DNA of 64,000 nt, from positions 18,771 through 82,770 of the forward strand of contig JAZRXZ010000052.1 in NCBI GenBank assembly GCA_045600445.1, in the 5' to 3' direction. Source of the stretch: Bacteroidales bacterium. Lineage in GTDB: Bacteria > Bacteroidota > Bacteroidia > Bacteroidales > UBA3663. The position numbers and the translations under genes were made by a program. Shown here piece by piece: positions 1,785 through 51,912 of this stretch; the stretch's first letter is position 1; every line of letters begins with the position of its first letter. The notes under the pieces are model-generated. The model saw only the letters and a program-made list of their open reading frames with translations, was not told the origin of the DNA and did not search any database.

Positions 1785-4019
1785 TTATTTGATTCTAATC
1801 TCCGCTGTCTGTCGTATATCCTCCGACGATGCGCCGATGAGGAGCTTGACAGGGAGCGATTCGCACACGAAGGCGTGGCGAGCCTCATCCCAGTAGGAGA
1901 GATCTTCCTTGTTGATCGTGAGGGTGACGAGAGACGTCTCGCCAGCCTTGATGTTGACACGAGCGAAGGCGCAGAGCTGCTTGAGAGGGCGGCTCACACG
2001 GCTCTCAGGATAGGTGGCGTAGACCTGGACGACCTCATCGCCATCGAGGCTGCCCGTATTCTTGACAGGCACGGTGAGGGTGACGCTCTGCTTGTCCTGC
2101 TTGAGGTCCTGCACGGCGCTGTACTGGAAGGTTGTGTAGCTCAATCCGTAGCCGAACGGGTAGAGGACGGGCTGATTGAAGTACTGGTAGGTGCGGCCAT
2201 GACGGATATCATAGTCGAGCATGTCGGGCAGGTCAGTGATGTCGCGCACCCAGGTCTGAGTGAGGCGGCCTGCTGGATTGACCTTGCCGAGCAATACATC
2301 GGCCAAGCCCGAGCCCTGCTCCTGGCTGCAGTGGGTGAGGTGCACGATGGCTGGGAGGTGCTCCTGACTCCAGTTGATGGTGTATGGGAAGCTGCTGACC
2401 AAGACGAGCACGGTGTTCTTATTGGCCTTATACATCTGGCGCACGAGGTCTTCGTCAGGGAGCTGGAGGGACTTACGGTCGACGGCTTCGCGTCCGTCGC
2501 TGGGCACAGGAGAGACCTTCCAGTTGCGCGTCGTACCGTATGGATGGTTGCCCACACACACGAGCACCACGTCAGCCTCCTTGGCGAGTCGCTCTGCTTG
2601 GCTCATGGCGTTGCTCGATGCATAGAGGATTTCTACGTCCTTTCCCCACAGATTGCCATTTCGCCCATCTGTTGAGAGCGCCATCTCCAACCCCCGACGT
2701 ATAGTGATGCGATAAGAAGGCTCGCCACCATACCAGTCCGTATCGATGCTGTCAGCCCACTGGCCAATGACTGCGATTTTCTTGATCTTGTCGGCCTTGA
2801 GCGGGAGGATTCCATCGTTCTTGAGCAATACTACCGACTTGGCCGTCACCTCGCGGACGTACTGACGGATGGCAGGGTCTTCCCAAGGCTTAGGCGCCGT
2901 GACGTCCTGTCCGATCTGGAGGTAAGGATTCCGGGTGTCAGGGCCATCGAGCAAACCGAGCTTGAGGGCGGTGTAGAGGTTGCCTCGGATGGCCTTGTCA
3001 ATCTCAGCCTCGGTGACGAGTCCGCGCTGGATGGCTTCGACAATCGACTCACGATAAGGGCTGAGGAACTGACCCACCGTGGTCTTGACCGCAGCCGCTG
3101 AGCCCTCGACCTGCGAAGGGTAGGCGTGATGCGCGTTGACGAGGAGACGCAGGGCGCTACCATCGGTACAGATAATGCCCTTGACGCCCCACTGCTGGCG
3201 TGCGATGGTGTCGTTGGCCGGATGCACCATCATCACGGTGCCGTTCCACTTGTTATAAGCGTCCATGAAACTCTGCGCGCCGCCACGGGTGATACCCATG
3301 TAGAACGGGCGGCTGTAGTACTCGCGGAAGAGGCGCATATCGAAATCGGAAGACGTGCTGTCGCGCCCATCCTCGTTGCTGTTGGCCAGGAAGTGCTTCA
3401 TGAGCGATGCGGTCTTCCAGTAGCGTGGATCATCGCCCTGGAGGCCCCGGATGATGGCCGTGGAGAGGGTGCCGGTGAGGAAGGCGTCTTCGCCAAAGCT
3501 CTCCTCGGTGCGTCCCCAGCGAGGGTCGCGGGCAAGGTCAGCATTCGGAGCACGCATCACGAGCGAATGCTGAGGGCTGAGGGGGCTCTGGAAGTACCAA
3601 CGAGCCTCTTCGGCGGTGATTTCGCCCACGCGCTTGAGGATGTCTACGTCCCAGGTCTCACCGAGGCCGTAAGCCTGCGGGAAGACGGTGGTAGGCTTTG
3701 GGTCGAGGACTTGGGTGCCATCGGGCTTAGTAATCTTGTTCCAACCGCCAGCGCCGCCCAGGGTTAGGCCGTGGAGGCCTTCGAAGTGGCTGCTGTTAGG
3801 AATGCCAAGGCGTGGCACGCCGAGATTGGTGGAGAGGAGGTCAATCTTCTCATCGAGGGTGAGCTGCTTGAGGAGCAGGTCGATGCGCTGATCATCGGTC
3901 TTCTTGAGGTTGCGGAAGGCCAGGGAGTCAGCGGCAGGCTTGGCCTGGAGGGATTGCACAGATCCCCAAAATGAGGATGTGAGGGCCAGGGTGACAAGCA
4001 AGGTAAGGAGCTTTTTCAT
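1785..4019 (-). CDS. Glycoside hydrolase family 3 (beta-glucosidase/beta-xylosidase type), secreted
   Basis: Signal peptide (MKKLLTLLVTLALTSSFWG). GH3 N-terminal region (LTLDEKIDLL...GIPNSSHFEGLHGL), KGIICTDG region and a C-terminal sandwich plus Fn3-like tail. Confidence 0.9.
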   Translation of the reverse strand: MKKLLTLLVTLALTSSFWGSVQSLQAKPAADSLAFRNLKKTDDQRIDLLLKQLTLDEKIDLLSTNLGVPRLGIPNSSHFEGLHGLTLGGAGGWNKITKPDGTQVLDPKPTTVFPQAYGLGETWDVDILKRVGEITAEEARWYFQSPLSPQHSLVMRAPNADLARDPRWGRTEESFGEDAFLTGTLSTAIIRGLQGDDPRYWKTASLMKHFLANSNEDGRDSTSSDFDMRLFREYYSRPFYMGITRGGAQSFMDAYNKWNGTVMMVHPANDTIARQQWGVKGIICTDGSALRLLVNAHHAYPSQVEGSAAAVKTTVGQFLSPYRESIVEAIQRGLVTEAEIDKAIRGNLYTALKLGLLDGPDTRNPYLQIGQDVTAPKPWEDPAIRQYVREVTAKSVVLLKNDGILPLKADKIKKIAVIGQWADSIDTDWYGGEPSYRITIRRGLEMALSTDGRNGNLWGKDVEILYASSNAMSQAERLAKEADVVLVCVGNHPYGTTRNWKVSPVPSDGREAVDRKSLQLPDEDLVRQMYKANKNTVLVLVSSFPYTINWSQEHLPAIVHLTHCSQEQGSGLADVLLGKVNPAGRLTQTWVRDITDLPDMLDYDIRHGRTYQYFNQPVLYPFGYGLSYTTFQYSAVQDLKQDKQSVTLTVPVKNTGSLDGDEVVQVYATYPESRVSRPLKQLCAFARVNIKAGETSLVTLTINKEDLSYWDEARHAFVCESLPVKLLIGASSEDIRQTAEIRIK

Positions 4020-4053
4020 GTTATGATGTTTTATTGGTTGTATTGCATAAAAA

Positions 4054-4079
4054 GCGCTACACGCTACAGTGCTACAGTT
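4054..4079. repeat. Third copy (1 mismatch) of the GTAGC-triplet motif, 35-60 bp upstream of the GH3 start codon
   Basis: GCGCTACACGCTACAGTGCTACAGTTG compared with 1194-1220. Confidence 0.85.
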
Positions 4080-4085
4080 GATTTT

Positions 4086-4838
4086 TTAGTCACTAAGCAC
4101 CAGTTCCACCGGGCAGTGGTCGCTGCCGAGGATTTCGTTGTGGATCTCAGCGCTCTGGAGGCGCTCGCGCAGACGGTCGGAGATGACGAAGTAGTCAATG
4201 CGCCAGCCCACATTCTTCTGACGCGCCTGGAAGCGGTAGGACCACCACGAGTACTTAATCTCGTCAGGATGGAGGAAGCGCCAAGAATCGGTGAACCCAC
4301 GGGAGAGGAGCTGCGTGAATTTCTGTCGCTCTTCGGCGGTGAAGCCAGCGCTCATCGTGTTGGTCTTCGGGTTCTTGAGGTCAATCTCCTCGTGAGCTAC
4401 ATTCATATCGCCGCACACGATGACGGGCTTTTTCTCATCGAGGGCGCGGAGATAGGACTGGAAATCCTCCTCCCACTGCATGCGGTAATCGAGGCGCTTG
4501 AGCCCGTCCTGCGAGTTGGGCGTATAGACGGTGACGAGGTAGAAGTCGGGCATTTCGAGCGTGATGACGCGGCCCTCATGGTCGTGCTCCTCAACGCCTA
4601 TGCCGTAGGTGACACTGAGCGGCTGGTGCTTGGTATAGATGGCTGTGCCAGAATAGCCTTTCTTCTCGGCATAGTTATAGTAGGCCTGATAGCCCTCGAA
4701 CTGTAGGTCGAGCTGGCCCTCCTGCATCTTGGTTTCCTGCAGACAGAAGAAGTCTGCATCGAGCTTACGGAAGTCTTCTTCGAAGTTTTTGCCCACGCAG
4801 GCGCGGAGGCCGTTGACGTTCCATGAAATGAATTTCAT
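4086..4838 (-). CDS. xth: Exodeoxyribonuclease III
   Basis: MKFISWNVNGLRA...CLQETK...GSDHCPV are hallmark EEP/ExoIII motifs over the full length. Confidence 0.95.
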   Translation of the reverse strand: MKFISWNVNGLRACVGKNFEEDFRKLDADFFCLQETKMQEGQLDLQFEGYQAYYNYAEKKGYSGTAIYTKHQPLSVTYGIGVEEHDHEGRVITLEMPDFYLVTVYTPNSQDGLKRLDYRMQWEEDFQSYLRALDEKKPVIVCGDMNVAHEEIDLKNPKTNTMSAGFTAEERQKFTQLLSRGFTDSWRFLHPDEIKYSWWSYRFQARQKNVGWRIDYFVISDRLRERLQSAEIHNEILGSDHCPVELVLSD

Positions 4839-15083: not shown

Positions 15084-15560
15084 TCATGCGCGTAGTGATT
15101 CGTTCCACTTTTTCACCACATACTGATAGTAGCTCCGATACATCGCTTGTTGTTTCCCTTTGGCACCTGACAATTCGAAGCTGTGTTTATAGTTGGCTGT
15201 AAGTTTGTCAAGTAGCTTCACACACTTACTGATACTCGTACGTTCACTGGTTACTTTGGCGCCGAAGTGGCGAGTTATGGCAAAGAGGAAGCCTTGCAGA
15301 TTATTCTGCATGTTTTTTTCGGTGGTATAATAAAGGAAGATGATTGACCAGAACAGGGTTTTACTCATACCGCGATCTGGGCCGAACAAAAAATCATGTC
15401 TCGTATTCGGTCCTCCTTCTTTATAATAAAGCCTGAGCATAGCTTCGCCACGGCAGAAGAACTCTTCCTCACTTTCCGTTGAGCAGAAAGGGTTCTCCAC
15501 CGGGCGACCTACAGCACGTTTGGCCTTAGGTGTTATGTCTTCGTCATCTGTCCAGAGCAT
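15084..15560 (-). CDS. Hypothetical protein (158 aa), island cargo
   Basis: Long ORF 5 bp downstream of the 329-aa gene with protein-like composition and an AT-hook-like KRAVGRPV near the N-terminus. No family recognised. Confidence 0.55.
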   Translation of the reverse strand: MLWTDDEDITPKAKRAVGRPVENPFCSTESEEEFFCRGEAMLRLYYKEGGPNTRHDFLFGPDRGMSKTLFWSIIFLYYTTEKNMQNNLQGFLFAITRHFGAKVTSERTSISKCVKLLDKLTANYKHSFELSGAKGKQQAMYRSYYQYVVKKWNESLRA

Positions 15561-15565
15561 GTGCT

Positions 15566-16555
15566 TTACTCCTCTTCAATATCATCCCAGATATCATCAT
15601 CCATCTCTTCCTCTTTTGAGAACAACGACACTCCCAGCGCATCCAGTGTCAGGAAGTTCCACGAATAGCTCTCATCGGGGGTCGATACGTCATACTTGAC
15701 CATCAGCGCCTTCCATTGGGCATGGAGTGCATCCATCTGCTCCTGTGACGGATGGCGTTCTCCCATCGTCCAATGCTCTCTGATCCAAGCCGAAAGCTCT
15801 CGGGCGCAGAGCACCTGATTGTGCCGATAGGTAGGGTCGATGAAGGTGTCGAACGAGTCGTATACCGATTGCTCCAGCAGGTCAAAGCCCAGCAGCTGAC
15901 CCACCAGGATATGGTTCTCGATTTCCCAAAGATCTTCTGCACACTTGCAGATGGCGGCAGTCAGAGCCTTCTGCTTTTCGTCCGTCTTAGTGCATCTCTT
16001 CCATTCCTGATTTACCTGATATTCAAACGATTCTGTTGCCTCCTGACGCGCCACACATGAGTATTTCTCCACATCCATCCAGATCTGGTGTTCCAAGTCA
16101 TAGAGGATGGCCGCCGACAGGTAAGGCATGGGTTGGCCGATGGCCGGATCTCCCTGACAGATCAGCTCAAAAAGCTCCTTGTTTTCGAAGCTCGATGTTC
16201 CATTATTCAAGTTCCATGGCCAAGCCGACCAATCAATCTTCCTACCGCGGAATAGCGGATAGCACACCTCCTTAACGTCCAGATAGAACCCCAGACGCAC
16301 GCGCTTCTCAGCCGAAAGCTGATTGATCTGGCTCAGGTCTCTGACCAGCTCACACAACTCCTGATCGTCAAATACCTCAAGCGTATATTCGGTGATCTGT
16401 GAGTACCGACCCTCGCAAAACATCACATTATTGGCCGTTCTTAGCACCAATTGGCGATATTCCTCGCTCTTTTTTTCGGGCAGATGGGCGAAGTCAACGT
16501 CCTTTATGAAGTGGTCATAATAACCTATGATAATATCTAAAGTCCACGATTTCAT
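15566..16555 (-). CDS. Hypothetical protein (329 aa, Trp-rich, acidic C-terminal tail EEEMDDDIWDDIEEE), island cargo
   Basis: Long ORF with its own -7 box (16612-16619). No family recognised. Confidence 0.6.
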   Translation of the reverse strand: MKSWTLDIIIGYYDHFIKDVDFAHLPEKKSEEYRQLVLRTANNVMFCEGRYSQITEYTLEVFDDQELCELVRDLSQINQLSAEKRVRLGFYLDVKEVCYPLFRGRKIDWSAWPWNLNNGTSSFENKELFELICQGDPAIGQPMPYLSAAILYDLEHQIWMDVEKYSCVARQEATESFEYQVNQEWKRCTKTDEKQKALTAAICKCAEDLWEIENHILVGQLLGFDLLEQSVYDSFDTFIDPTYRHNQVLCARELSAWIREHWTMGERHPSQEQMDALHAQWKALMVKYDVSTPDESYSWNFLTLDALGVSLFSKEEEMDDDIWDDIEEE

Positions 16556-16611
16556 ATGCTTAGCTTTATTTGTGGTAGGGGCGGAAGAGCATTCCTTCTC
16601 AAATCCTGACG

Positions 16612-16619
16612 CAAAGATA
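16612..16619 (-). promoter_or_regulatory. -7 box (TATCTTTG) for the 329-aa/158-aa gene pair
   Basis: Exact TAnnTTTG about 57 nt upstream of the ATG at 16555. Confidence 0.55.
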
Positions 16620-16647
16620 ATACTTTTCCGTCACCCTACCAAATTTA

Positions 16648-16687
16648 GTACACTCTTTTTCTTATTGTTAATTGTTATTTGTTATAA
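16648..16687 (+). repeat. 41-bp heptad-repeat element, copy a
   Basis: GTACACTCTTTTTCTTATTGTTAATTGTTATTTGTTATAA. It is the inverted partner of copy b (3 mismatches). Confidence 0.9.
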
Positions 16688-16729
16688 CCCTCGGCAAAAG
16701 CTCTTTCTATGGCTGCGAGGACCTTACTC

Positions 16730-19069
16730 TCAGGCGGCCGCTTGCATCACCTTCTGGTATCTACCATCGCCCACCTTTCTCACCAATCCGTCAGCCACCC
16801 ATCGGCTGAGCACCATGGCCACCTGAGCATTAGCACCATTCTGCAGACGTAGGGCAATGAGGTCTTGTGTCGTGAAGTCATTAGCGAGCAATGAGAAGAG
16901 CTTCTTATTCTTCGACATACGTGTCTGGCTCTGTTGCAAGGCGTTATCCACCTCGTTGATCTCCTCGTAGGCCTTTCCGCAGAAGGTATAGACACTCTGA
17001 CGCATCGCCTCGGCCGTCCACTTCACCACCTTGCCAATCTCCGCTATCTGCTTCTCATCGGTCGGACAGCCACGCAGGAACCACTCCAGTACGCCCACTC
17101 TCATAGCCACTACCAGCGAGCGCTTGCCCAGATCGTACCACACCTCATCAGGATTCTCGTCATCTTCCTTATCCCACTTATTCTTAATGAGCAGGATATT
17201 TTTTTCGAGCCAAGGCAACTGCACCTTATTACCGTCCTTGCCCGCCTGTGTGAGACGGTCACAAACCTCCTCAAACTGAGCACGTTCAGTATCGGTAAAC
17301 TTCTCATAGTGAGGGAATCCCTTCATTCTCACCTTTGGCATGAAAGCGTAGAGGATTCGGTTGTTGAGGCCACCTTCCGGATTACTGTAGAACTTGTGCA
17401 TAGCGCCCGGAGTACCACAGAAAAGCGTGTTGAGGAAGATCGGGATACGGATGTTTCGTGTCTGCTTACTCTTCGATTCCTTGCCTCCTATGGCATTGTC
17501 GAACGCCTTGCAGTAGAGGTCATCATTGTCTCCATAGATGGTGCGCTTGGCTTTCTGCAGTCGCGCCACCTCCTCGGTAAACTGAATACCGTGCTCGCCC
17601 TTCAGATTGTCCAGATACTCCAGAAACTGACTCGTTGTGATGTCATCACCATAGATTCTGACACGTGGGCGAGGGTCATCGGGTTTCTCCGAGTCGTCCG
17701 AAGCCTTGTTGCATATCGCTAAGTACTCATCGGCTTTCCGGCGTTCCAAAGCATCCTGCACCCTGATTCTCTGCGTCATCTGCTCGAAGAGATGAGCTGC
17801 GAAGGCCTTGCCCGAACCACTCTTGCCCACCACGGCGGTCATGAACGAGAGGGAGTTCTCGCGGCCATCCATGTAATCGAAACGGATATGCGTGCCATAC
17901 AAACCCCAGATCGGAAGCATAGACATAAATGCCTGTGCACGAAGGTGTTTTGGATAATGTGCGAGTATCATCTCCTCCACGGCCGAGAGCTTTGGCAGTT
18001 TGGCCAACTGCACCACTTCTGTATCTTCCTGCTGGTCAATGCTCTCGTTCTTCAGCTCGCTCAATACGCCTCGCATCATCGGAGTGATGGTTCGTCCGTT
18101 GGTAGCAATGGCGCTGCCGATGGTGCGGCGGATCTCCCCGTCAGGCAAGCCCTCGAAGTAAGGCGCTGTGAGCATATATACCGTCTGGAAGTTGTACTCG
18201 CAGATGTGGCGCAACTCACGCACCAGCGCAAACAATACATTATTACGCTCACCCACCTTAGCCACTCCCTGAGTAGCCAGTCGCTTCAACAATGCCTCGA
18301 TGATGGAGCTGTATTTGATGCCGTTGTAGGAGAAGCTATCTGCGATGTTCTGCTGAGCAGTGTTCCCATTTGAAGAATTTGCTCTTGTTTCGCTCATATT
18401 CCCATGCTGGGTATCTGCAGCTTGAGGCAACTTTAAGACCTCCTCCCTTTGAGGGCTCTCACAGCCAAGGCTTGATAAGCCTTCTCGAGAAAGTGGGGTA
18501 GGTCTTTGTCTTTCAAACAAGCCTTTCTTATCCCAAAACATCAGATATTCGTTGCCAGGCAGAAACGACAGTCGTGTAATGTCCTTGATCTTCTCATCGG
18601 CAAACTGCTCCATGCCAAACTGTGCAGCTATTCTTGCCTGGCACTCGCTGATCTTCTCACCTTCGCCCAACACCGTCACCAGTCGAAGTCCCTCGCCGCG
18701 AGGAGTGATGTGCACCAGCACAATACCCAGTTCATGCTCATGGCCCGCGATGTTCTTGATATAGAACAGGCGAGGCGACTCTGGCATGTGATCCCAGTCG
18801 TGGATGCAGAACCCGCTCTCCACGGCAAGCCCGTTCTGCGCCGAAGGTCGCTCCCCGTTTTCGGTCATCTGGCAGGCAAACAGTATCACCGGCAACTGCT
18901 GCTTCCACTGACTTTTCTTCTCCTGATCTGTTTCGGCCTTGATGCGAGCCATTGTCTCGCGTACCTTCTCAGAGTTTATCAACTGCTCGAAGCCCTCAGC
19001 AGTCAAAAGTTTCATGGATTTTTCCAAGCGGGAATCCATGTACCCGATTTGAATGAATTTTTTGTCCAT
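16730..19069 (-). CDS. Mobile-element primase-helicase-like protein (VirE/BT4734-type N-terminal region + DUF3987-like P-loop NTPase)
   Basis: Walker A VVGKSGSGKAFAAHL within a core typical of DUF3987. The N-terminal ~170 aa resemble the BT4734/VirE N-domain. An iteron array lies immediately upstream. Family names are from memory. Confidence 0.7.
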   Translation of the reverse strand: MDKKFIQIGYMDSRLEKSMKLLTAEGFEQLINSEKVRETMARIKAETDQEKKSQWKQQLPVILFACQMTENGERPSAQNGLAVESGFCIHDWDHMPESPRLFYIKNIAGHEHELGIVLVHITPRGEGLRLVTVLGEGEKISECQARIAAQFGMEQFADEKIKDITRLSFLPGNEYLMFWDKKGLFERQRPTPLSREGLSSLGCESPQREEVLKLPQAADTQHGNMSETRANSSNGNTAQQNIADSFSYNGIKYSSIIEALLKRLATQGVAKVGERNNVLFALVRELRHICEYNFQTVYMLTAPYFEGLPDGEIRRTIGSAIATNGRTITPMMRGVLSELKNESIDQQEDTEVVQLAKLPKLSAVEEMILAHYPKHLRAQAFMSMLPIWGLYGTHIRFDYMDGRENSLSFMTAVVGKSGSGKAFAAHLFEQMTQRIRVQDALERRKADEYLAICNKASDDSEKPDDPRPRVRIYGDDITTSQFLEYLDNLKGEHGIQFTEEVARLQKAKRTIYGDNDDLYCKAFDNAIGGKESKSKQTRNIRIPIFLNTLFCGTPGAMHKFYSNPEGGLNNRILYAFMPKVRMKGFPHYEKFTDTERAQFEEVCDRLTQAGKDGNKVQLPWLEKNILLIKNKWDKEDDENPDEVWYDLGKRSLVVAMRVGVLEWFLRGCPTDEKQIAEIGKVVKWTAEAMRQSVYTFCGKAYEEINEVDNALQQSQTRMSKNKKLFSLLANDFTTQDLIALRLQNGANAQVAMVLSRWVADGLVRKVGDGRYQKVMQAAA

Positions 19070-19125
19070 AATTAAAATTTATAGTTAATAATCCGAGCCA
19101 TTATTTTTCGCTCGTTTTTCGATTG

Positions 19126-19133
19126 CAAATATA
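19126..19133 (-). promoter_or_regulatory. -7 box (TATATTTG) for the primase-helicase gene
   Basis: Exact TAnnTTTG about 57 nt upstream of the ATG at 19069. Confidence 0.55.
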
Positions 19134-19185
19134 CATAAAAAAATCCGCGTTTACAAGCCTTTTCTCGCCAAAAGAATGGATTTAT

Positions 19186-19265
19186 AATTAGTGTGGCATA
19201 ATATCGAATTAGTGTGGCATAATCCGTAATTAGTGTGGTATAATATCATAATTAGTGTGGCATAA
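19186..19265. repeat. Four iterons AATTAGTGTGG(C/T)ATAA at 21/21/22-bp spacing (origin-like)
   Basis: Copies start at 19186, 19207, 19228 and 19250. Confidence 0.9.
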
Positions 19266-19294
19266 CTTATGACTGTTCTCGACCATAAGTTATG
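19261..19294. repeat. 11-bp inverted repeat CATAACTTATG / CATAAGTTATG (12-nt spacer) abutting the last iteron
   Basis: Read directly. A T9 tract follows at ~19316-19325. Confidence 0.85.
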
Positions 19295-19368
19295 ATAACG
19301 GTCGGTCATGAGTATGTTTTTTTTTCAGCTTGTCATAATCTATTTAACGAAGACTGATATTCCACGAT

Positions 19369-19407
19369 TATAACAAATAACAATTAACAATAAGAAAACA
19401 AGTGCAC
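19369..19407 (-). repeat. 41-bp heptad-repeat element, copy b
   Basis: TTATAACAAATAACAATTAACAATAAGAAAACAAGTGCAC, the reverse complement of copy a. Confidence 0.9.
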
Positions 19408-19496
19408 CTATTGAGTTAAAGAAGAGAGAAGATGTTCTATATATATAATAGGTATATTTAAAACTCCTTAGAAATTTTCCGTAAAATTCCCTTCCA

Positions 19497-19537
19497 CCCA
19501 CACTATTTTCCTTATTGTTAATTGTTAAATGTTATAA
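19497..19537 (+). repeat. 41-bp heptad-repeat element, copy c
   Basis: CCCACACTATTTTCCTTATTGTTAATTGTTAAATGTTATAA. It is the inverted partner of copy d (2 mismatches). Confidence 0.9.
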
Positions 19538-19636
19538 CAGGTGTTTACCTCAATATAAGCCGTTATAAAATCGAATGCTCTCTTTCTGCGCCAAGGCATC
19601 CTCTTTTCGGTACGCAGTTTAGCATGCCACGCCCAA

Positions 19637-19670
19637 GGCATCCCTTTCACAGTACCGTGACAAGGATGCC
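19637..19670. other. GGCATCC...GTAC...GGATGCC hairpin, the same family as the hairpins at 28672-28832
   Basis: GGCATCCCTTTCAC-AGTACC-GTGACAAGGATGCC. A weaker relative with a CGGTACG centre lies at ~19596-19635. Confidence 0.7.
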
Positions 19671-19838
19671 ACGATCAAGAATTGCAGCTTCCGAAATCCT
19701 GACAGCCTTTTCTTGGCCGTGGATTTCAACATCGCGTACCAGATGTCAGTATTCTTGATGTGCGAAACTGCATTTTGAATTTCGAATGTAAAAAAACGTA
19801 TCGACACAGGTAAAGAACACGAACATGTTAGAATAATA

Positions 19839-19880
19839 AAGACCTCCACTTTCGCTAAGATTGTGGAGGCCTTATTTTTT
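19839..19880. terminator. Hairpin terminator with a strong T-run on the plus strand and a weaker one on the minus strand
   Basis: AAAGACCTCCAC-TTTCGCTAAGATT-GTGGAGGCCTT followed by ATTTTTTT. It may also terminate the minus-strand gene ending at 19935. Confidence 0.65.
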
Positions 19881-19886
19881 TATAAT

Positions 19887-19925
19887 TGTAACATTTAACA
19901 ATTAACAATAAGAAAAATAGTGTGG
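19887..19925 (-). repeat. 41-bp heptad-repeat element, copy d
   Basis: TGTAACATTTAACAATTAACAATAAGAAAAATAGTGTGG. It lies between the stop codon at 19935 and the hairpin at 19839-19880. Confidence 0.9.
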
Positions 19926-19934
19926 TTGTCGCTG

Positions 19935-20849
19935 TTAGATGTGTTTAATCAGGTGTCTGCCCCATACCACGATCATCGCAAAAAGGACGCGGGTAGAGAT
20001 GATCCACCACGCTGAGATGCCGGTGATGGCGAAGACGATGGTATCTTCGAGCATGGAGTGATTCATGATGAGGTGGTAGTTCACATCGTTGGCTTCTTTG
20101 GGGGTGATGACGCCTTTCTCTTCCAGTTCGAGCATCACGGCTGAACCGTAGCTGAGGCCTAAGACGTTGCCTACGAGCCACATATAGGTGGCTTGGCGCG
20201 ATAATCCGAAGACGTGCATCAGTGGCGCGAAGAATTGAGAGAGCTTCGGCAGGAGGTTATAGGCTTCGATGAGACGCTGGATGACCATCAATGAATAGAT
20301 GATGCCGAAGACCATGACCACCATCTTCAGCTGGGAGAGGAGCCAGGTGTAGAGAACTTCCATGAGGCTACTGTCGGCCGCAGCACCCATATAGGCGTAG
20401 GCTTCGGGCATGTCAGGAAGCACAATATTTAAATAGTACGCGCATACGAAGGCCATGATGATGCGGATGATGCCCATTTTGATGAACGAGGAACCGGTCT
20501 TCTTGCACACCGCACACTCCATAGGCAAGGCGTGGCAGAGCGCAATCATCAGACAGATAATCGTGGCTTGGCGTAAGGTGAGTGGGATGGACATCATGGC
20601 CGCAACACCCGCATAGGTGCCAGCCGTGGCTCCGGTGATGAAAATAACGGCCGAAGACCCTGGTAATCCCATGTACTGAAAGATGGGATTGAGGTATTGT
20701 GCAATCCACTCGAGGATGCCGAAATGCTGCAGCAATGCCACAGCTAATGAGATAGGAATCATCAGCTTCAAGAGCCACTTGGCACTTTTGAGTGTAGTTG
20801 GCCAAGCGGCTTTGAGGCTATATAGTAGTTTCTTTTTGAACTGAGACAT
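19935..20849 (-). CDS. Nucleoside-recognition (Gate) domain membrane protein
   Basis: Polytopic membrane protein resembling Bacteroidales nucleoside recognition domain proteins (assignment from memory). Confidence 0.55.
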   Translation of the reverse strand: MSQFKKKLLYSLKAAWPTTLKSAKWLLKLMIPISLAVALLQHFGILEWIAQYLNPIFQYMGLPGSSAVIFITGATAGTYAGVAAMMSIPLTLRQATIICLMIALCHALPMECAVCKKTGSSFIKMGIIRIIMAFVCAYYLNIVLPDMPEAYAYMGAAADSSLMEVLYTWLLSQLKMVVMVFGIIYSLMVIQRLIEAYNLLPKLSQFFAPLMHVFGLSRQATYMWLVGNVLGLSYGSAVMLELEEKGVITPKEANDVNYHLIMNHSMLEDTIVFAITGISAWWIISTRVLFAMIVVWGRHLIKHI

Positions 20850-23587: not shown

Positions 23588-23611
23588 TGTAACATTTAAC
23601 AATAAGAAAAA
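23588..23611 (-). repeat. Shortened copy e of the heptad-repeat element (lacks one TTAACAA heptad), ending 2 nt before the Arc-like start codon
   Basis: TGTAACATTTAACAATAAGAAAAA compared with copy d TGTAACATTTAACAATTAACAATAAGAAAAA. Confidence 0.8.
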
Positions 23612-23613: not shown

Positions 23614-23814
23614 ATGGCCAAGAAAGAAGGAAACACTACTAAAAGCTTTGTACTACGTGTCGATGGCGCTACGATGGATGCTATCGAGGCGTGGGCTGCT
23701 GATGAGTTCCGTTCGGTCAACGGCCAGATACAATGGATATTGGCCGAGGCGCTCAAAAAAAGCGGCAGGCTGAAGAAAACGAAAGCTTCGCTCCAACAGC
23801 CTGCTGAGGAATAA
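23614..23814 (+). CDS. Arc/MetJ-type ribbon-helix-helix DNA-binding protein
   Basis: KSFVLRVDGATMDAIEAWAADEFRSVNGQIQWILAEALKKSGR matches a beta-strand plus two-helix RHH pattern. Confidence 0.65.
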   Translation: MAKKEGNTTKSFVLRVDGATMDAIEAWAADEFRSVNGQIQWILAEALKKSGRLKKTKASLQQPAEE

Positions 23815-25037: not shown

Positions 25038-25967
25038 TCATGATTGAACCATGCTGAGAATATCACGGTGAATCTTTGAGATTTCATCGTACTCGCCGAA
25101 ATAGAGCTGACTGGTAAGTTCTTTCTCAAAGTGTTTGTTGAATTTCGAACCTTGTGACACAATCAGATCATAGAGCTGATGGCCTCTCACGAAAAGATAG
25201 CAGTTGTCTTGGTGTACACCTTGTGCATTGCAGCGAGCCTCATACCAGGTGGTATCAGCGTCTGGGTAGGTTTGCTTGAGATGCTTTAGAAGCTTTGAGC
25301 AACGTTCACGCAACAAGCGTAAGACCGAATCACCATTATGATATATTGAGCGATGTCCCAAAGGAAGAGCAAGAATGCGATGGAAGACTTTCTGAGGGAA
25401 AGCATCTTCGCCGACTTCCTGCAGGTAGAGCTGCCATACCAGAAGAGGATATACGGCATAGGAATAACTCTTCAGGAACTTTTCGAAAGAAAACTCCGGG
25501 AGAGGAGCCATTGCTTTTTCCTGTTGCTTTGCCTCTTCTTCTCTTGCCACATCTATGGCGCGTTGACAATTTTTATAGTAACAGAAATGATTTTCAAAGC
25601 TATAGGTGTAGGTCTGCAGTACGTAGTGATTAGCGTCAATGCCGCACTCCTCGGTCAGATAGCGGTAATCAGAGTCAATGGCAATCCAGAAACGTTGATC
25701 CAGAAATTCACGGTATTGTAGGCACTGAGTGCAGCCGGCAGTCATATTGCCACTGAAACTGCGACTGGCTGAAATGAAACGGAATTTCCCTTGAGGATAG
25801 GCCTCATGGAGTACCTTTCCCCAGAAGATCTCATCATTCTTATTCTCGATATGAATTGCCGCAGTAGCCCCCGTCAGACGACATTCCGCCTTGAAGCGCT
25901 TGGCAGCACTCTCATAGAAGGCGCGTTTCTCGCTGTTTGAGACGCGTGTGCGGGGTTCGAGATTCAT
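25038..25967 (-). CDS. DUF4435-like (OLD/AriB-type TOPRIM) protein
   Basis: TOPRIM-like acidic motifs in DUF4435 order: IHIENKNDEIFWGKVL (Glu), WIAIDSDYRYL (DxD), YTYSFENHF (YS-ENy-type motif). Confidence 0.6.
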   Translation of the reverse strand: MNLEPRTRVSNSEKRAFYESAAKRFKAECRLTGATAAIHIENKNDEIFWGKVLHEAYPQGKFRFISASRSFSGNMTAGCTQCLQYREFLDQRFWIAIDSDYRYLTEECGIDANHYVLQTYTYSFENHFCYYKNCQRAIDVAREEEAKQQEKAMAPLPEFSFEKFLKSYSYAVYPLLVWQLYLQEVGEDAFPQKVFHRILALPLGHRSIYHNGDSVLRLLRERCSKLLKHLKQTYPDADTTWYEARCNAQGVHQDNCYLFVRGHQLYDLIVSQGSKFNKHFEKELTSQLYFGEYDEISKIHRDILSMVQS

Positions 25968-26866: not shown

Positions 26867-27769
26867 ATGAAACCAACACTCTTTGTACTTGCTGCCGGTA
26901 TGGGCAGCCGCTATGGTGGACTTAAGCAGCTCGATGGCCTCGGACCTAACGGTGAGACCATTATGGACTATAGTATCTACGACGCTATTCAGGCCGGTTT
27001 CGGCAAGGTAGTCTTTGTTATCCGTCGTGTATTCGAACAGGACTTCCGCGAGAAGATCGTCTCTAAGTATGAGGGTCGCATCCCAGTAGAGCTCGTATTC
27101 CAGGACCTTGATAACTTGCCAGCTGGCTTCAAGGTGCCAGAGGGTCGTGAGAAGCCATGGGGTACTAACCACGCTGTGCTGATGGGCAAGGATGCTATCA
27201 AGGAGCCATTCGCAGTCATCAACGCTGACGACTATTACGGAAGCGAGTCATTCAAGGTGCTGGCTGACTACCTCACCAGCATTGAGGGTACTGAAGGCAA
27301 GTACGCTATGGTCGGCTATCGTGTATGCAATACCCTTTCTGAGGGCGGTACCGTGGCTCGTGGTGTCTGTGAGACCAATGCAGAGGGTTACCTTACCAAG
27401 GTCACTGAGCGCACCAAGATCCTTCGCGAGGAGGATGGTGTAATCCGCTTCATCGAGGAGGACGGCAAGACCGCTTTGGCAGAGAATACTCCTGTATCTA
27501 TGAATATGTGGGCTTTGACCCCTGACTATTTCCGTCATTCTGAGGAGTATTTCATCGAGTTCCTCAAGGAGCATGGCCAGGAGCTCAAGTCTGAGTTCTT
27601 CATCCCACTCATGGTCGATGTCCTCATCAACTCAGGCAAGGCTACCTGCAAGGTACTTGACACTCCATCAAAGTGGTTCGGCGTGACCTACGCTACAGAT
27701 CGTCCCGCCGTTGTTGCTAAGTTCAAGGAGCTCCACGAGCAGGGGCTGTATCCTAATAAGCTGTTCTAA
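26867..27769 (+). CDS. Sugar-phosphate nucleotidyltransferase family protein
   Basis: N-terminal LAAGMGSRYGGLKQL (GxGxR NTP-transferase signature) with a Rossmann-like fold pattern. Confidence 0.75.
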   Translation: MKPTLFVLAAGMGSRYGGLKQLDGLGPNGETIMDYSIYDAIQAGFGKVVFVIRRVFEQDFREKIVSKYEGRIPVELVFQDLDNLPAGFKVPEGREKPWGTNHAVLMGKDAIKEPFAVINADDYYGSESFKVLADYLTSIEGTEGKYAMVGYRVCNTLSEGGTVARGVCETNAEGYLTKVTERTKILREEDGVIRFIEEDGKTALAENTPVSMNMWALTPDYFRHSEEYFIEFLKEHGQELKSEFFIPLMVDVLINSGKATCKVLDTPSKWFGVTYATDRPAVVAKFKELHEQGLYPNKLF

Positions 27770-27787: not shown

Positions 27788-28624
27788 ATGAGCAATCTTC
27801 ACATTACCGATATCGTTATTGAGAGTATGTGGGGCGATACCACCTTGGAGTGGCATGGCCTTGATCCTGGCGTCAACATCGTCGTCGGTCAGAACGGCTT
27901 TGGTAAGTCGACGATGCTCAACCTCATCCGCGCCGTCCTGATGAAGGACGACAAGTTTGTCAAGCAGCTCAAGGCTAAGGTCTCTATCACGACTACTGCA
28001 GGAGAGATGACGTTCGATGGTAAGCAGATGGTTCACAAGCCTGCTTTTGGCGGCTATGACAGCCCTGCCTGTTTCTACTACGTCAATACGTTCGATGTGC
28101 CGGCCAGCAAGAAGTCTTCGCTCTCGCAGCTAGGACTCACGCTCGATCAGGTTCTCTATCAGCGCAATCCGGATGTTTTTTCATTCTCTGACTATCGTCT
28201 AGGAATGCTTAAGGACCTACGTTCTGCGTTGGCTAAGCAGGAGCGTATCGATAAGTTCTTCGAGCTCATTAACTCGCTCTTTGTCAACACGGGCAAGACC
28301 ATCGAGATTGATGATAAGAACCGAGTCATCTTCCGCAAGGGTGACCTCATCATCGAGATGGAGCGCCTCTCAGCAGGTGAGAAGCAGATTCTGCTGCTCC
28401 TCTTCACGCTCTTCCTCATGGAAGATAAGCCTACGGTACTTCTTCTTGACGAACCGGAAATTTCTCTGCACATTGAATGGCAGGATCGCCTCATCTCGCT
28501 CATGAGCGAACTGAATCCTAACTGTCAGATCATCATGACTACCCACTCGCCAAATATCTTTGCGGATGGATGGGAAGACAAACTGACGTTTATCAGTGAT
28601 CTTGTCGTTACAAACCCTGAATAA
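27788..28624 (+). CDS. Small ABC-type/AAA_21-like ATPase (278 aa)
   Basis: Walker A GQNGFGKST, signature-like LSAGEKQ, Walker B LLLDEPEISLH and H-loop TTHSP. It lies 18 bp after the nucleotidyltransferase gene. Confidence 0.8.
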   Translation: MSNLHITDIVIESMWGDTTLEWHGLDPGVNIVVGQNGFGKSTMLNLIRAVLMKDDKFVKQLKAKVSITTTAGEMTFDGKQMVHKPAFGGYDSPACFYYVNTFDVPASKKSSLSQLGLTLDQVLYQRNPDVFSFSDYRLGMLKDLRSALAKQERIDKFFELINSLFVNTGKTIEIDDKNRVIFRKGDLIIEMERLSAGEKQILLLLFTLFLMEDKPTVLLLDEPEISLHIEWQDRLISLMSELNPNCQIIMTTHSPNIFADGWEDKLTFISDLVVTNPE

Positions 28625-28630: not shown

Positions 28631-28836
28631 AATCCTGACATTGTGTACGCAATGTCAGGATTTTTCTTCTTGGCATCCTTTCTACGGTACGGTGGAAGGG
28701 ATGCCTTTATCGTTGAAGCTGACATCTGGTACGTAATGTCAGCTTCCGACATGTACGAATCTAACACTAGGGACGTAGTGTTAGATCCATATAATTAGGC
28801 ATCCTCTACACGGTACACTGTAGAGGATGCCTTTTT
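28631..28836. repeat. Array of five consecutive hairpins (H1 28631-28662, H2 28672-28705, H3 28715-28746, H4 28760-28785, H5 28797-28832). Stems differ, and four of the five have a GTAC apex
   Basis: H1 and H5 are followed by T-runs on the plus strand. H2 and H5 share outer GGCATCC/GGATGCC stems with the hairpin at 19637-19670. Confidence 0.8.
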
Positions 28837-28878
28837 GTTTTATATCAACACAATGAACGAAGTGTTGATTTCTTATGA

Positions 28879-44449: not shown

Positions 44450-45055
44450 ATGCGCGTCAACGAGATCTTTTATTCACTGCAAGGCGAGGGCCGATATACC
44501 GGTACACCTGCTGTCTTTGTTCGTCTATCAGGATGCAACATGCGCTGCTGGTTCTGCGATACCGATTTCTCCGCCTATCAGGAAATGTCCGAAGAACAGA
44601 TTGTTGACGAAGTCCTGCGCTATCCTTGCGTTCACGTGGTTATTACTGGTGGTGAACCGACGATACAGTTGACACCCTCACTTGTCGACCTTCTGCACCA
44701 GCATGGCAGGTACGTCATGATGGAGACGAATGGCAGTTTGCCATTGGCAGAAGGCTGTGATGTCGACTGGATTACTTGTTCTCCGAAGCTCGAAGATCTG
44801 GTAAACGGTAATCGTCGCATTAAGACTATTCGTATTCAGCGTATTGATGAACTTAAAGTCGTTTATGAAGGCGATGGTAAGCAGGATATGAGTCTTTACG
44901 AAGCTTTTGAAGCTAAGGAATACCGTTTGCAGCCATGTGATGTCAAGGATTCTAAGCGCAATCAGCAGATTCTTGAACAAACGATCGATTACATCTTACA
45001 TCATCCGAAATGGAAACTATCTCTTCAAACCCACAAGATAATCAACGTCCGATGA
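44450..45055 (+). CDS. queE: 7-carboxy-7-deazaguanine synthase (radical SAM)
   Basis: EIFYSLQGEG and CNMRCWFC (CX3CX2C). Confidence 0.9.
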   Translation: MRVNEIFYSLQGEGRYTGTPAVFVRLSGCNMRCWFCDTDFSAYQEMSEEQIVDEVLRYPCVHVVITGGEPTIQLTPSLVDLLHQHGRYVMMETNGSLPLAEGCDVDWITCSPKLEDLVNGNRRIKTIRIQRIDELKVVYEGDGKQDMSLYEAFEAKEYRLQPCDVKDSKRNQQILEQTIDYILHHPKWKLSLQTHKIINVR

Positions 45056-45630
45056 CACCCGTCTCTGATGAAGAACTCCAGCAGGCTATTGTGACCATTC
45101 TGCGAGCCATCGGAGAGGATCCTACCCGTGAAGGCCTTGTTGGCACTCCTGATCGTATCTGTCGTATGTATAAGGAGTTATTCCGTGGTTATGATTCTGC
45201 ACAGAAACCTAGGATTACCACCTTTGAAAATGACTCTCACAGCACCGAGTTGGTCTTCGATGCGGGTGATTTCTATTCGATGTGCGAGCATCACATGATG
45301 CCCTTCTTTGGTAAATACTACTTTGCATATATGCCTAGCGACGAAGGTCGTATCCTTGGCATCAGCAAGATTGCTCGTGTCGTCGGTTATTGTGCAGCAC
45401 GCCTGCAATTGCAAGAACGTCTTGCACGCGACATCATCGATATGCTTGACGATGCTCTCGACCATGAGGCTCTTGGCTTTGCTATTGTTCTCAAAGGTCA
45501 GCACATGTGCAAGAGCATGCGTGGTGTCAAGAATCCTGGTGCGATGTCTGTTTCTTATTACACAGGTATCTTTAAGCAAGATGCTGCTACTCGCAATGAG
45601 TTCCTGCAGATGATTAAGATGAATGACTGA
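45052..45630 (+). CDS. folE: GTP cyclohydrolase I, divergent paralog linked to queDE
   Basis: [14 protein letters not shown] and HMC motifs. The start is set at the ATGA overlap with the queE stop (MTPVSDEE...) rather than at 45010. Confidence 0.85.
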   Translation: MTPVSDEELQQAIVTILRAIGEDPTREGLVGTPDRICRMYKELFRGYDSAQKPRITTFENDSHSTELVFDAGDFYSMCEHHMMPFFGKYYFAYMPSDEGRILGISKIARVVGYCAARLQLQERLARDIIDMLDDALDHEALGFAIVLKGQHMCKSMRGVKNPGAMSVSYYTGIFKQDAATRNEFLQMIKMND

Positions 45631-48670: not shown

Positions 48671-50140
48671 CTCACCAGGATAGAGCTGACCAGCTGGGAG
48701 AGGAGTATTGATATCCTCTACGCCGAGCATCTTGAGAGCCTCGAAGAGAACCTTACCGCAGTGCTCGAATGCGTATGCTCCGTGGTGTGGGAAACGCTTG
48801 CCAACGAGGACGTGACGATAGAAACGAGCGAAGCCTGGGATAGCGTGGATACCGATGCCACCGAATGAGCATGGATCAACGTCAAGGAACTCACCCTGTG
48901 CGATGTAAGAAACGAGCTTAGCATCAGAGTTAGACTGGATACGGAACATGGTAGACTTGCCTGGCATAATCTGGCCCTCGAGAGTACCCTTGGTGATATC
49001 TGGACTCATGAGACGAGCCTGGATGAGCTGATACTTGATCTTGCAGTCCTTCATGCACTGTGAGCAAGTGTTACCACAGTGGAAGCCCATGTAGAGGTCC
49101 TTGAGGTCTGCACCAGCGAGGTTAGCACCAGCAGGGATAACGTCAGCAGGAACAGAGTTGTTGATATCGAGGAGAGTAGCTGGTTTCTCAGTTGCGCACT
49201 CAGCCATGTACTCAGAGAGAGCACCGTAGAGGTCAACCTCACAAGCTACAGGAATACCACGACCAGTGAGACGAGAGTTAACATAGCAAGGCTCGAACTC
49301 GAAAATAGGCTGCCAAGCTGGCCAGCACTTATTTGCGAATACAGCATACTTAGAACCGCCCTTGTTGCCCTCATACCAATCCATGAGTGTAACCTCAAGC
49401 TGAGCCATCTTGTTGATGATCTCTGGGTATGTGTTACGTGCAGCACCAAGCTCTGCCTCCATGTCCTTAGCTACAGCAGCGATCTCAGCAGCCTTACCTG
49501 GTTTAGCTACGATCTCATCGAATGCCTTCTTGAGGTCGAGCTCAGAGTTCTCCTGTACTTCGATACCCATGTCGTACATTGGCTGGATAGGTGCGTTACA
49601 AGCGAGGAAGTCCCAAGGACGTGGACCGAAGCCGATAACCTTGAGGTTACGAACACCGACAACTACGCGAGCGATGTTACGGAAATCAGCGAGTTCCTTA
49701 ACTGCCTCAGCAGGAGTTACGTTTGGATACTCTGGGATATATACCTTAAGACGACGGAGACCTACGCTATAAGAGAAGTTGAGGACACCACAGAGAGCAT
49801 CACCACGATCATTAGCAAGATTAGACTTGCCTTCCTCCTTTGCAGCAAGAACCATGCAAGGACCACCAAACTTCTGGCAGAACAATGTTGTAGGACCCTC
49901 TGGACCGAAGTTACCGAGGAACATACAAACTGCATTGATACCATTCTCCTTAGCCCAGTCAAGAGCCTTGTATGTATCAACGTCGTTCTCGATTGTTACT
50001 GGACAATCATAAACCTCTGGAAGACCAGCTGCCTTAACCTCTGCCATAACAGCAGCAAGACGAGCCTGAGTAAGGGTAATAGGGAAGCAGTCGCGGCTTA
50101 CGCCAACGATACCAAGCTTCACGGTTGGTTGATTAATCAT
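48653..50140 (-). CDS. L-fucose/L-arabinose isomerase family protein
   Basis: 495 aa. The N-terminal KLGIVGVSRDCFP and overall pattern recall FucI-like isomerases (from memory). GC-rich codon usage is typical of highly expressed genes. Confidence 0.5.
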   Translation of the reverse strand: MINQPTVKLGIVGVSRDCFPITLTQARLAAVMAEVKAAGLPEVYDCPVTIENDVDTYKALDWAKENGINAVCMFLGNFGPEGPTTLFCQKFGGPCMVLAAKEEGKSNLANDRGDALCGVLNFSYSVGLRRLKVYIPEYPNVTPAEAVKELADFRNIARVVVGVRNLKVIGFGPRPWDFLACNAPIQPMYDMGIEVQENSELDLKKAFDEIVAKPGKAAEIAAVAKDMEAELGAARNTYPEIINKMAQLEVTLMDWYEGNKGGSKYAVFANKCWPAWQPIFEFEPCYVNSRLTGRGIPVACEVDLYGALSEYMAECATEKPATLLDINNSVPADVIPAGANLAGADLKDLYMGFHCGNTCSQCMKDCKIKYQLIQARLMSPDITKGTLEGQIMPGKSTMFRIQSNSDAKLVSYIAQGEFLDVDPCSFGGIGIHAIPGFARFYRHVLVGKRFPHHGAYAFEHCGKVLFEALKMLGVEDINTPLPAGQLYPGENPFAI

Positions 50141-50211
50141 GATTTTTTAATTTTTTAAATGGGTAATGTTTATGTTATTTAATTTGTAATCAAAATCTAT
50201 TGATTCACATG

Positions 50212-50219
50212 CAAACATA
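50212..50219 (-). promoter_or_regulatory. -7 box (TATGTTTG) for the isomerase-like gene
   Basis: Exact TAnnTTTG about 72 nt upstream of the ATG at 50140. Confidence 0.5.
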
Positions 50220-50469
50220 AGTACTTTTTTCAAACAAAACAAATTTTTAGGAAGAAATCGGCTGTTTTGATACATTTTTTAAGAAATCTGCATCATTATT
50301 ATCGATTAGATTCAATGGTATTAAATGTTTATATAAAGTTTTATTTAATGAAAAATATCAATTATAAAATATATTTAATGTATAAAACGGTACAAATAGG
50401 AATATAACATAATCTATTAATTTAGAAATTTGAGAATAAATACCAATAGAAAAAATGCTATATTAAAAT

Positions 50470-50850
50470 TCATAAGCCAAGTTTTTCTAATCCTATTTTG
50501 ACATAATCTTGTTCTAAATCATTTGGCTTAAAAATTGAATCACCAAGTTTTATGAGGTCTAAATCAATAGGTACAATTCCTTGCTTTTTAGACTCTATTG
50601 AACGGCCCAAATCAGATTCGAAATGTTTTAGTTTATCTCTTATTTCTAAATATGAAAGCTCGGTTTCACCAATAGCTACTTCATTATAATACTTCTTACC
50701 TACTCCACTTCCTACTCCATCTGTTTCATAGTGATGCGAGAATTGAACATCACCATGAAAAAGGTCTATTAATAAAATCTCTGCCTTGTTAAGATTCAAT
50801 AAAGCTTCAACAAGACAGAGATTAGTTCCTATGCTAATAATGAATTTCAT
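50470..50850 (-). CDS. folK: HPPK (FolK)-like protein, short form (126 aa)
   Basis: It aligns by eye to HPPK blocks: IISIGTNL (IAIGSNL), YETDGVG (YRTPPLG), [13 protein letters not shown]...DLGR and PIDLDLI (LDLDI). The usual C-terminal (V)PHP region was not seen. It overlaps folE by 4 nt. Confidence 0.55.
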
Positions 50851-51434
50851 TTAGATATCAAGTTAAGGAATTCTTCTCTTGTCTTAATATCAGTGAATGC
50901 ACCAGTAAAGTCACTTGTAGTTGTAGTTGCATTCATTTTCTGAACTCCTCGCATTTGCATACATAGATGACTTGCTTCGACAACAACCATTACTCCAAGC
51001 GGATGCAAAGTTTCTTGTATACATTCTTTTATCTGTAAAGTCAATCTTTCCTGGACCTGAAGTCGACGTGCAAAAACTTCTACAACACGAGGTATCTTAC
51101 TAAGTCCTACAATATATTTATTCGGAATATAAGCGACATGAACTTTTCCAAAGAAAGGCAACATATGGTGTTCGCACATGCTATAGAAATCTATATCTTT
51201 TACGATAACCATTTGTTGGTAATCCTCACGGAACATAGCCGAACGAAGTATCTCACATGGATCTTGAGCATATCCCTGAGTAAGGAACTGAAGAGACTTA
51301 GCAACCCTCATAGGAGTTTTGATTAATCCCTCACGATCCTTATCTTCGCCAACAAACTCAAGCATCTGTGAAACATTGTCAGCCATTCTTTCGAGTAATT
51401 CCTCCTTATTTACCATCTTATCTGTTAATTTCAA
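50847..51434 (-). CDS. folE: GTP cyclohydrolase I (canonical housekeeping type)
   Basis: [22 protein letters not shown] and [15 protein letters not shown]. Confidence 0.9.
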
Positions 51435-51912
51435 TTTCGTCTTTAATCACAAACATTTCACGGCCATATTCTGGGAATTTCTTCTTCAATTCTCTAAGAG
51501 TAGTAATCGCCTCTTCATTAGTTGTGAAATTTCCTAAAAGTAAGCGCCAGTTTGGAGACTTAAAAATAACATAAGTTGAAAGATCTGGATATACATCTTT
51601 GATATCCTTTTCTATCTTATAGGCTCTGTTTTTTGAAGTAACTTGATTGTTACCTGAAAAAGCTCTGATTCTAAATCCATTTGATATTATTACATCAGAA
51701 CCTTTTCCTTTCCTCGAATTAGCATAATATGCTTTAGGATGATATGAGATTAGATCTTCAAGACGTGAATCTTGATAAACTGCGACTTTGCCTGAACTGC
51801 GCAAGTGTGTTGAGATTGAGACAAGCGTAGTTGTGCTGTCAGTTGGAAGTAACTGAGCTTTTAAAGAAATAACTGAGCAAAAAAACAATAAAAGCAATAT
51901 ACGAATTCTCAT
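51418..51912 (-). CDS. SPOR-domain protein
   Basis: Signal peptide [20 protein letters not shown] and a C-terminal SPOR domain ([10 protein letters not shown]...[14 protein letters not shown]). The start is trimmed from 52026 because the longer ORF runs into tpiA and its terminator. Confidence 0.8.

Follow-up and report, generated by a model that had tools for sequence, protein, structure and literature searches.

The window analysed here, a 64,000-nucleotide (nt) stretch of the Bacteroidales bacterium assembly GCA_045600445.1 (contig JAZRXZ010000052.1), is a piece of Prevotella-type chromosome, where the domains of nearly all main open reading frames (ORFs) are ordinary ones of housekeeping proteins, enzymes or transporters (GH3, M13 peptidase, DnaG, KsgA, RelA, TIM and ClpB, for example). 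A small minus-strand insert, hereafter the rep island, is bordered by a PadR gene on one side and by a Gate-domain gene on the other. Its gene content is limited to rep, which encodes a primase-helicase-like protein, and to two further genes, h329 and h158, and its neighbours are housekeeping genes. In and around this island lie five copies, a to e, of a short array of heptad repeats, which an earlier note on this DNA had described as inverted pairs, and which are the subject of the present work.

A reading of the window sequence (16400-20300) and a repeat finder agree on all five copies where that note had placed them. Each long copy, of about 40 bp, consists of an iteron-like CACACT end followed by three 7-bp repeats. 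These three direct heptads per long copy are real, reading nnTAACA on one strand and TGTTAnn on the other, and the unit is a direct triplet, not a palindrome. The reading CACT...TGTTATAA is called F hereafter, and its complement R. The outer end of copies c and d, CCACACTATTT, is one mismatch off the core CCACACTAATT of the iterons that precede rep. Copies a and b differ by the 3 mismatches already reported, over 40 positions (93% complementary); for c and d the reported 2 mismatches are correct within a 41-nt frame, and become 3 over 43 nt (also 93%). The arms of these inverted repeats measure 37-43 nt, with spacings of 87 bp (b/c), 348 bp (c/d) and 2680 bp (a/b). A 17-nt core, CTTATTGTTAATTGTTA, occurs four times exactly in the window and once with a single mismatch, and allowing up to 3 mismatches gives 9 matches, against 0.2 expected from shuffles. 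On the same window, a profile of 26 family members recovers a to d with E-values of 9e-12 to 4e-9, and e with 5e-7, and it finds no sixth copy in the 64 kb; all five copies fall within 7 kb. An Rfam search of 14.5-24.5 kb returned nothing credible, and the sequence strings of the element led only to unrelated papers in the literature.

The end of copy a and the -33 TTTG of the h329 promoter downstream of it are 4 nt apart, a spacing that is conserved, and copy e lies, as had been described, just ahead of an Arc-like ORF (23614-23814, 66 aa, PF03869 match with E 4.5e-5), its array reaching to 23611 and the ATG standing at 23614. Between b and c, the spacer holds an 18-nt box, GTATATTTAAAACTCCTT, at 19452-19469, which is invariant in six genomes, and in 4 of 6 islands the spacer contains the 30-mers with the highest A+T content around rep. 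When single-stranded, the whole unit formed by b, spacer and c (19362-19543) is predicted with DNA parameters to fold into a hairpin with a 37-bp stem (-25.5 kcal/mol, z = -6.8), and a cruciform or hairpin role for this unit is conceivable. The box was also considered as the promoter of a small RNA antisense to the mRNA leaders, and rejected: the G conserved in TAnnTTTG is missing from it (TATATTTA), its counterparts in two related islands (L035 and L038) depart from that motif, and there is no conserved terminator after it.

The earlier note had regarded the 350 bp between c and d as a bounded noncoding module, a description that did not survive inspection. The interior holds REP-like (repetitive extragenic palindromic) hairpins, AGGCATCC...GGATGCC, at 19591-19682, which recur at 28.66-28.84 kb, together with a terminator-like hairpin at 19843-19869, and the segment has no homologue in other islands. 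Since this stretch belongs to the intergenic DNA of the host that follows the Gate gene, c and d do not form a unit. The hairpins in it belong to a second repeat family, AGGCATCC...GGTAC...GGATGCCTT, of which several follow one another (28666-28845) behind the gene whose end is at 28624, and two lie between c and d; they resemble REP-type intergenic palindromes or terminators.

The protein encoded by rep (Rep) has, besides its P-loop domain, a weak VirE/PriCT-like match at the N-terminus (E 2.6e-3) and a weak AbiEi-type winged-helix match at the C-terminus (residues 742-773, E 8e-4). A VirE_N primase-like domain is present only in distant relatives of Rep, and a family profile search found no solved structural relative. 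The model of h329 is all helical (predicted local distance difference test, pLDDT, of 92), and that of h158 shows a helical body with a disordered basic N-terminus (pLDDT 84). Compared with solved structures, neither model gave a match (best E 0.9-1.4), and neither protein matched a family in Pfam, NCBIfam, PHROG or PADLOC. The N-terminus of h158 contains a conserved, GRP-containing basic KAKRAVGRPVENPF segment that is AT-hook-like. Across h158 and its homologues, the N-terminal PKAKRAVGRPVENPF is nearly invariant and predicted to be disordered, and it could be a minor-groove DNA-binding arm.

Table 1. Features of the rep island and of the repeat arrays (window coordinates).
Feature	Position	Strand	Description
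h158	15084-15560	-	Conserved gene, 158 aa, 39 homologues
h329	15566-16555	-	Conserved gene, 329 aa
h329 operon promoter	16612-16643	-	TTTG-N20-TATCTTTG, canonical Bacteroidetes type, kept in related islands; two-gene operon downstream
Copy a	16648-16687	+	Third array, 42 nt past the rep stop codon; abuts the -33 element of the h329 promoter
rep	16730-19069	-	779 aa, DUF3987 P-loop domain (E 1.6e-12)
rep promoter -7 box	19126-19133	-	TATATTTG; TAnnTTTG at the same place in related islands
Iterons	19185-19269	-	Four direct repeats of 21/22 bp, core CCACACTAATT on the rep strand; kept beside rep in related islands
Copy b	19368-19407	-	Proximal array of the inverted pair, between spacer and 21-bp iterons
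b/c spacer	19408-19494		87 bp, 73% A+T, (TA)n tract; putative DNA-unwinding region
Copy c	19495-19537	+	Inverted-pair array on the distal side; the conserved island has its left edge here
Segment between c and d ('350-bp module')	19538-19885		Host-type intergenic DNA downstream of the Gate gene
Copy d	19886-19928	-	Satellite copy flanked by the Gate-domain gene's stop codon (19935) and the hairpin terminator; outside the conserved island
Copy e	23590-23611	+	Shortened, two-heptad satellite copy in the 35-nt gap between a bPH-domain gene and the Arc-like ORF

Related islands and a predicted origin of replication

Rep has 67 close relatives, called only 'DUF3987 domain-containing protein [Prevotella sp.]' where they are named at all. 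Nine of their contexts (L025, L026, L027, L034, L035, L036/37, L038, L039 and L040), whose Reps are 51-84% identical to that of the window, were compared with it, reading the layout in each locus as far as the contig extends. Written with rep on the plus strand, the common order is an R array, the AT-rich spacer, an F array, 2-4 iterons (CCACACTAATT), a TAnnTTTG promoter, rep, and another R array, followed by a TTTG/TTGG-N20-TATCTTTG promoter, a gene of ~325 aa and a gene of ~160 aa, these last two genes being usual. Short repeats, opposed on either side of an AT-rich spacer, are found also in L026, L034, L035 and L038, and in several relatives the rep stop codon falls within the downstream array. 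The chromosomal flanking genes differ in every island.

The heptads themselves are island-specific. The type is uniform among the copies of one island, and four types occur across islands: TTGTTAA/T (the window, L025 and L040), TTGTTAC (L027, L035, L036 and L039), TTGTGAT (L026 and L034) and TTGAAAT (L038). The outer TACACT/TAGTGTA end is constant across islands and resembles the iteron core. A counterpart of copy d exists in L035 only, and copy e has none; in L035, satellites with that island's own heptad variant stand 1.6 and 3.9 kb upstream from the core, and the five satellites of the window and L035 share a single orientation. As far as these sequence comparisons go, the conserved module has c, b and a as constant components, and d and e are satellite copies outside it.

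Some further observations concern the extent and the kinship of these islands. L040 starts at the inner end of an upstream F array and contains rep and the downstream array, without counterparts of h329 and h158. We rejected the idea that a and b are the ends of a rep transposon, in that c and the spacer always accompany b, and the L040 break lies 12 nt past the downstream array and not at its end. Many metagenome contigs with rep relatives are 2.6-2.9 kb long, as would be expected if an assembler breaks at inverted repeats ~2.7 kb apart. No relatives of Rep were found among PLSDB plasmids or viral contigs. In a phage collection the sole match to Rep is GenBank MT839699.1 (4086 bp, 'Bacteriophage sp.', human faeces, unannotated), with 23% identity over 60% of the protein, which may be a small circular relative of the replicon. 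In L026, about eleven tandem 41-nt repeats (3719-4169) stand 250 bp upstream of the distal heptad array, with a sequence unrelated to the arrays.

The layout shared by the islands, heptads specific to each of them, an AT-rich spacer and the promoters are observed; which protein binds the arrays, and that the module replicates, are inferred. Our preferred reading, to which we give a probability of about 0.5, is that the arrays are predicted cis-acting binding sites of a small primase-helicase replication module residing in Prevotella chromosomes. The idea of the earlier note that the heptads are bound by a protein is kept here, with the arrays as candidate sites. Copies c and b, opposed around the AT-rich spacer beside the four 21-bp iterons and the rep promoter, would form the likely core of the origin. 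Rep would attach to both arrays, perhaps by its C-terminal winged helix, and would open the spacer and load helicase in both directions, as described for the Pri-Rep of the Staphylococcus aureus pathogenicity islands (SaPIs). Copy a would then be a probable third binding site, through which Rep occupancy would affect copy control or the expression of the two downstream genes. The origins of SaPIs have iterons of 5-6 nt, at least two to either side of an AT-rich region and oppositely directed; their reader is the C-terminal winged helix of Rep or, in SaPI5, of the fused Pri-Rep, and two hexamers are thought to self-load (PMC9371898). The likeness is drawn because b and c place three repeats on each side of an AT-rich tract, opposed, beside a primase-helicase gene and in an element-specific form. 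Further support is seen in the recurrence of the layout, in the A+T content of the spacer, in the hairpin predicted for the single-stranded unit of b, spacer and c, in the P-loop domain of Rep with its weak terminal matches, and in the constant orientation of rep, next gene and spacer across islands.

The pairs c/d and a/b had suggested an inverton, or phase-variable switch, to the earlier note. As an inverton or a shufflon, the arrays would let a site-specific recombinase encoded elsewhere flip b/c, c/d or a/b and so switch expression. Inverted repeats of this length and spacing fit such a geometry, and, like the known invertons of Bacteroidales, they lie in intergenic DNA a few hundred bp apart in a Bacteroidales genome. 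In Bacteroides, some invertases are known to be global and to act on distant sites, and one encoded outside the window is conceivable here. The contigs of 2.6-2.9 kb appear to break at the repeats, although any inverted repeat longer than the assembler word would do the same. Against this stand the promoters, the recombinases and the orientations. No TAnnTTTG occurs on either strand of 19408-19494 (b/c) or 19538-19885 (c/d), and the three matches in 16.5-20 kb all belong to the promoters of rep and h329, with one simply overlapping the h329 -33 box. A flip of a/b would not switch rep, because the rep promoter lies inside too. The link that the earlier note drew to the rep gene and the origin was right. 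A domain scan of the main ORFs over the 64 kb found no recombinase, as the earlier note had said, and no integrase or transposase. Moreover, rep and the gene after it point the same way in 7 of 7 related islands, and the orientation of the spacer relative to rep, shown by the motif AAGGAGTTT(T)A(A)ATA(T)AC and the TA-rich tract behind it, is constant in at least 4 of 4, namely the window, L035, L038 and L039, the comparison with L026 being ambiguous. Set beside Bacteroidales invertons, the arms are longer than usual, there is no promoter inside and no invertase nearby, and no variation of orientation is seen between genomes; solitary copies, moreover, have no partner. A phase-variable switch is hence very improbable.

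Copies and units outside the islands

A scan with a 24-mer over one genome per species found the element in eight metagenome-assembled genomes (MAGs) of Bacteroidales/Prevotellaceae, and in each of four of these it is intergenic on two different contigs. In other phyla the same scan gave plain (ATTGTTA)n microsatellites only, as did a scan of JGI (Joint Genome Institute) metagenomes. A viral collection gave nothing for the element, and its matches to the box GTATATTTAAAACTCCTT were chance ones in a coding gene. Solitary copies lie R-oriented, 0-131 nt upstream of a start codon, at 8 or more loci, against at most one F-oriented; copy e and the copy at the third FtsX gene of L001 are two further R-oriented cases. 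Besides these, five R-spacer-F units (L004, L007, L010, L018 and L024) are 77-81% identical to window positions 19360-19537, with the box GTATATTTAAAACTCCTT invariant. These array-spacer-array units span 170-330 bp, their homology ends at TTATAA, and they adjoin unrelated genes (MutS, DUF4114 proteins).

In the loci L001 and L006, the element stands at each junction of tandem FtsX/MacB paralogues, always in one orientation (L001 1801-1835 and 4176-4215; L006 2797-2837). These paralogues are only 26% identical to one another, the element abuts the ATG directly once, and at these junctions it gives TAA stops in all three frames.

Dispersal of this kind raises the alternative of a plain mobile element, which the earlier note had named as a miniature inverted-repeat transposable element (MITE). 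A non-autonomous repeat, similar to a MITE or to the palindrome doublets known as REPINs and BIMEs (REP doublets forming hairpins and bacterial interspersed mosaic elements), could have spread in Prevotellaceae and colonised the rep island as well. The intergenic copies beside unrelated housekeeping genes, the rep-less units with their common end, the heptad variant shared by the L035 satellites and their island, the inverted doublets with a spacer and the BIME-like alternation of orientation in clusters all speak for it, and terminal inverted repeats as in MITE/TIR (terminal inverted repeat) transposons are present, with the arms and complementarity given above. The MITE proposal keeps some weight from the copies and rep-less units at unrelated loci of other genomes. 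Against it, no target-site duplication was found at the flanks of a/b, c/d, b/c or the five rep-less units, and neither the window nor the islands hold a transposase or a RAYT (REP-associated tyrosine transposase). Unlike REP-type elements, the unit is not palindromic. Its copy number is low, with 5 copies in 64 kb, all of them clustered; three copies are fixed in position within a gene module whose Reps are as little as ~50% identical mutually; and the orientation bias of solitary copies before start codons favours function or selection. We regard a mobile repeat family as unlikely.

That same bias, with the short distances to start codons, would suit operators for a regulator of tandem heptads, either the Arc-like ribbon-helix-helix (RHH) protein encoded beside copy e or an island protein such as h158, which would repress or activate the promoters of rep, the h329 operon and scattered host genes. 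The conserved position of copy a beside a canonical -33 TTTG, the filling by copy e of the gap ahead of the Arc-like ORF, and the conserved GRP-containing basic N-terminus of h158 are all consistent with this, and the omega repressor of pSM19035, which reads 7-bp repeats, offers a precedent. The Arc/RHH form of the proposal, put forward in the earlier note, is weak, since no Arc homologue is present in any compared locus although the arrays are kept, and the Arc-like ORF accompanies copy e only. An operator role is further opposed by L001 and copy e, which leave no room for a promoter between array and ATG, by b and c, which flank no TAnnTTTG promoter, and by L040, which keeps arrays without h329 and h158. 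Operators for a heptad-reading regulator are, on balance, a distinctly unlikely reading of the arrays.

Several points also weigh against the origin reading that we prefer. The winged-helix and primase assignments of Rep rest on weak matches (E about 1e-3), and Rep might in truth recognise the separate 21-bp iterons, with the heptads bound by some other protein. Heptad type and Rep tree disagree: the Rep of L036 is ~51% identical to all others, yet its arrays are of the TTGTTAC type, like those of L027 and L035. Few columns are candidates for specificity across ten islands, three in Rep and three in h158 (Rep R333Q/S337N and the residue after RW in the C-terminal helix; h158 E39R/L44R); co-variation with ten islands is uninformative as to which protein reads the heptads. 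The layout departs from that of SaPIs, where the inverted pair lies downstream of rep; here it lies upstream, with a single array downstream. Finally, the element is found beside ordinary MAG genes (tandem FtsX/MacB permeases, ppk, M23 peptidase, MutS, DUF5686), and the five array-box-array units have neither rep nor iterons within the 8 kb compared; a simple origin model predicts neither such orphan units nor solitary copies near host genes.

These orphans would be accommodated if the array-spacer-array unit were a portable origin, whose rep-less chromosomal copies (the five units above) were fired in trans by the primase-helicase of an island, an extension that we consider highly speculative and improbable. 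If it were true, it would imply a local over-replication of neighbouring host genes, or a recombinase-free spread of the unit, with h329 and h158, of novel folds, as partners, and the solitary arrays as sites in host operons controlled by Rep or h158.

The origin reading has consequences of its own. Prevotella is a dominant genus of the gut and rumen that is poorly tractable genetically, and a compact, self-contained module, with one 780-aa initiator, its iterons and an inverted array resembling an origin, would be a candidate for building replicating vectors. The islands form a family with no recognisable integrase and with two conserved proteins without known fold. The orphan arrays near host genes, if functional, would link a selfish replicon to the dosage or regulation of host genes.

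Other features of the window

Three observations lie apart from the rep island. A DUF4435 protein (25038-25967, minus strand) is encoded two genes away from an AAA_15/AAA_21 ATPase, in the region of the plus-strand ORFs 26867-27769 and 27788-28624. The ATPase matches begin only at residue ~143 of the second of these, and the preceding 300-aa ORF has no match; the DUF4435 and AAA_15/AAA_21 genes may represent an ATPase-nuclease defence pair that has split or decayed. The G+C content is 33-39% across 50001-64000, compared with 43-60% elsewhere in the window. A second gene for GTP cyclohydrolase I (50847-51434) duplicates the one at 45010-45630.

Comparison with known replication systems

Among described systems, origins of the SaPI or P4 type are the closest to the predicted one; SaPIs are phage-inducible chromosomal islands (PICIs). 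The SaPI origins and the predicted one both have short repeats of 5-7 nt, at least two per side of an AT-rich region and opposed, an adjacent primase-helicase gene, element-specific repeats and a possible C-terminal winged-helix reader. The rep island differs in its extra set of 21-bp iterons and in its DUF3987 P-loop helicase, which has no detectable sequence similarity to the solved Rep structures. The hallmarks of PICIs or phage satellites, namely an integrase, a master repressor and packaging or capsid-redirecting genes, are absent from the island, and orphan copies of its arrays lie elsewhere in genomes.

The satellite phage P4 encodes alpha, a protein of ~780 aa that joins a primase, a helicase and a C-terminal winged helix, and carries octamer repeats in both orientations at ori and crr. 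The repeats here are heptads and not octamers, the helicase of alpha is of another family, and no sequence similarity was found. The architecture is nonetheless alike, with one protein of ~780 aa and repeats at separate cis sites in both orientations.

Iteron plasmids such as P1 (incC/incA) and mini-F place sets of repeats on either side of rep. The Rep of the island is not a RepA/WH1-WH2 initiator, and its flanking arrays are inverted heptad triplets. As in those plasmids, the arrays flank the initiator gene, 21-bp direct iterons stand by the rep promoter, and the downstream set, copy a in the window, would be a plausible site of copy control.

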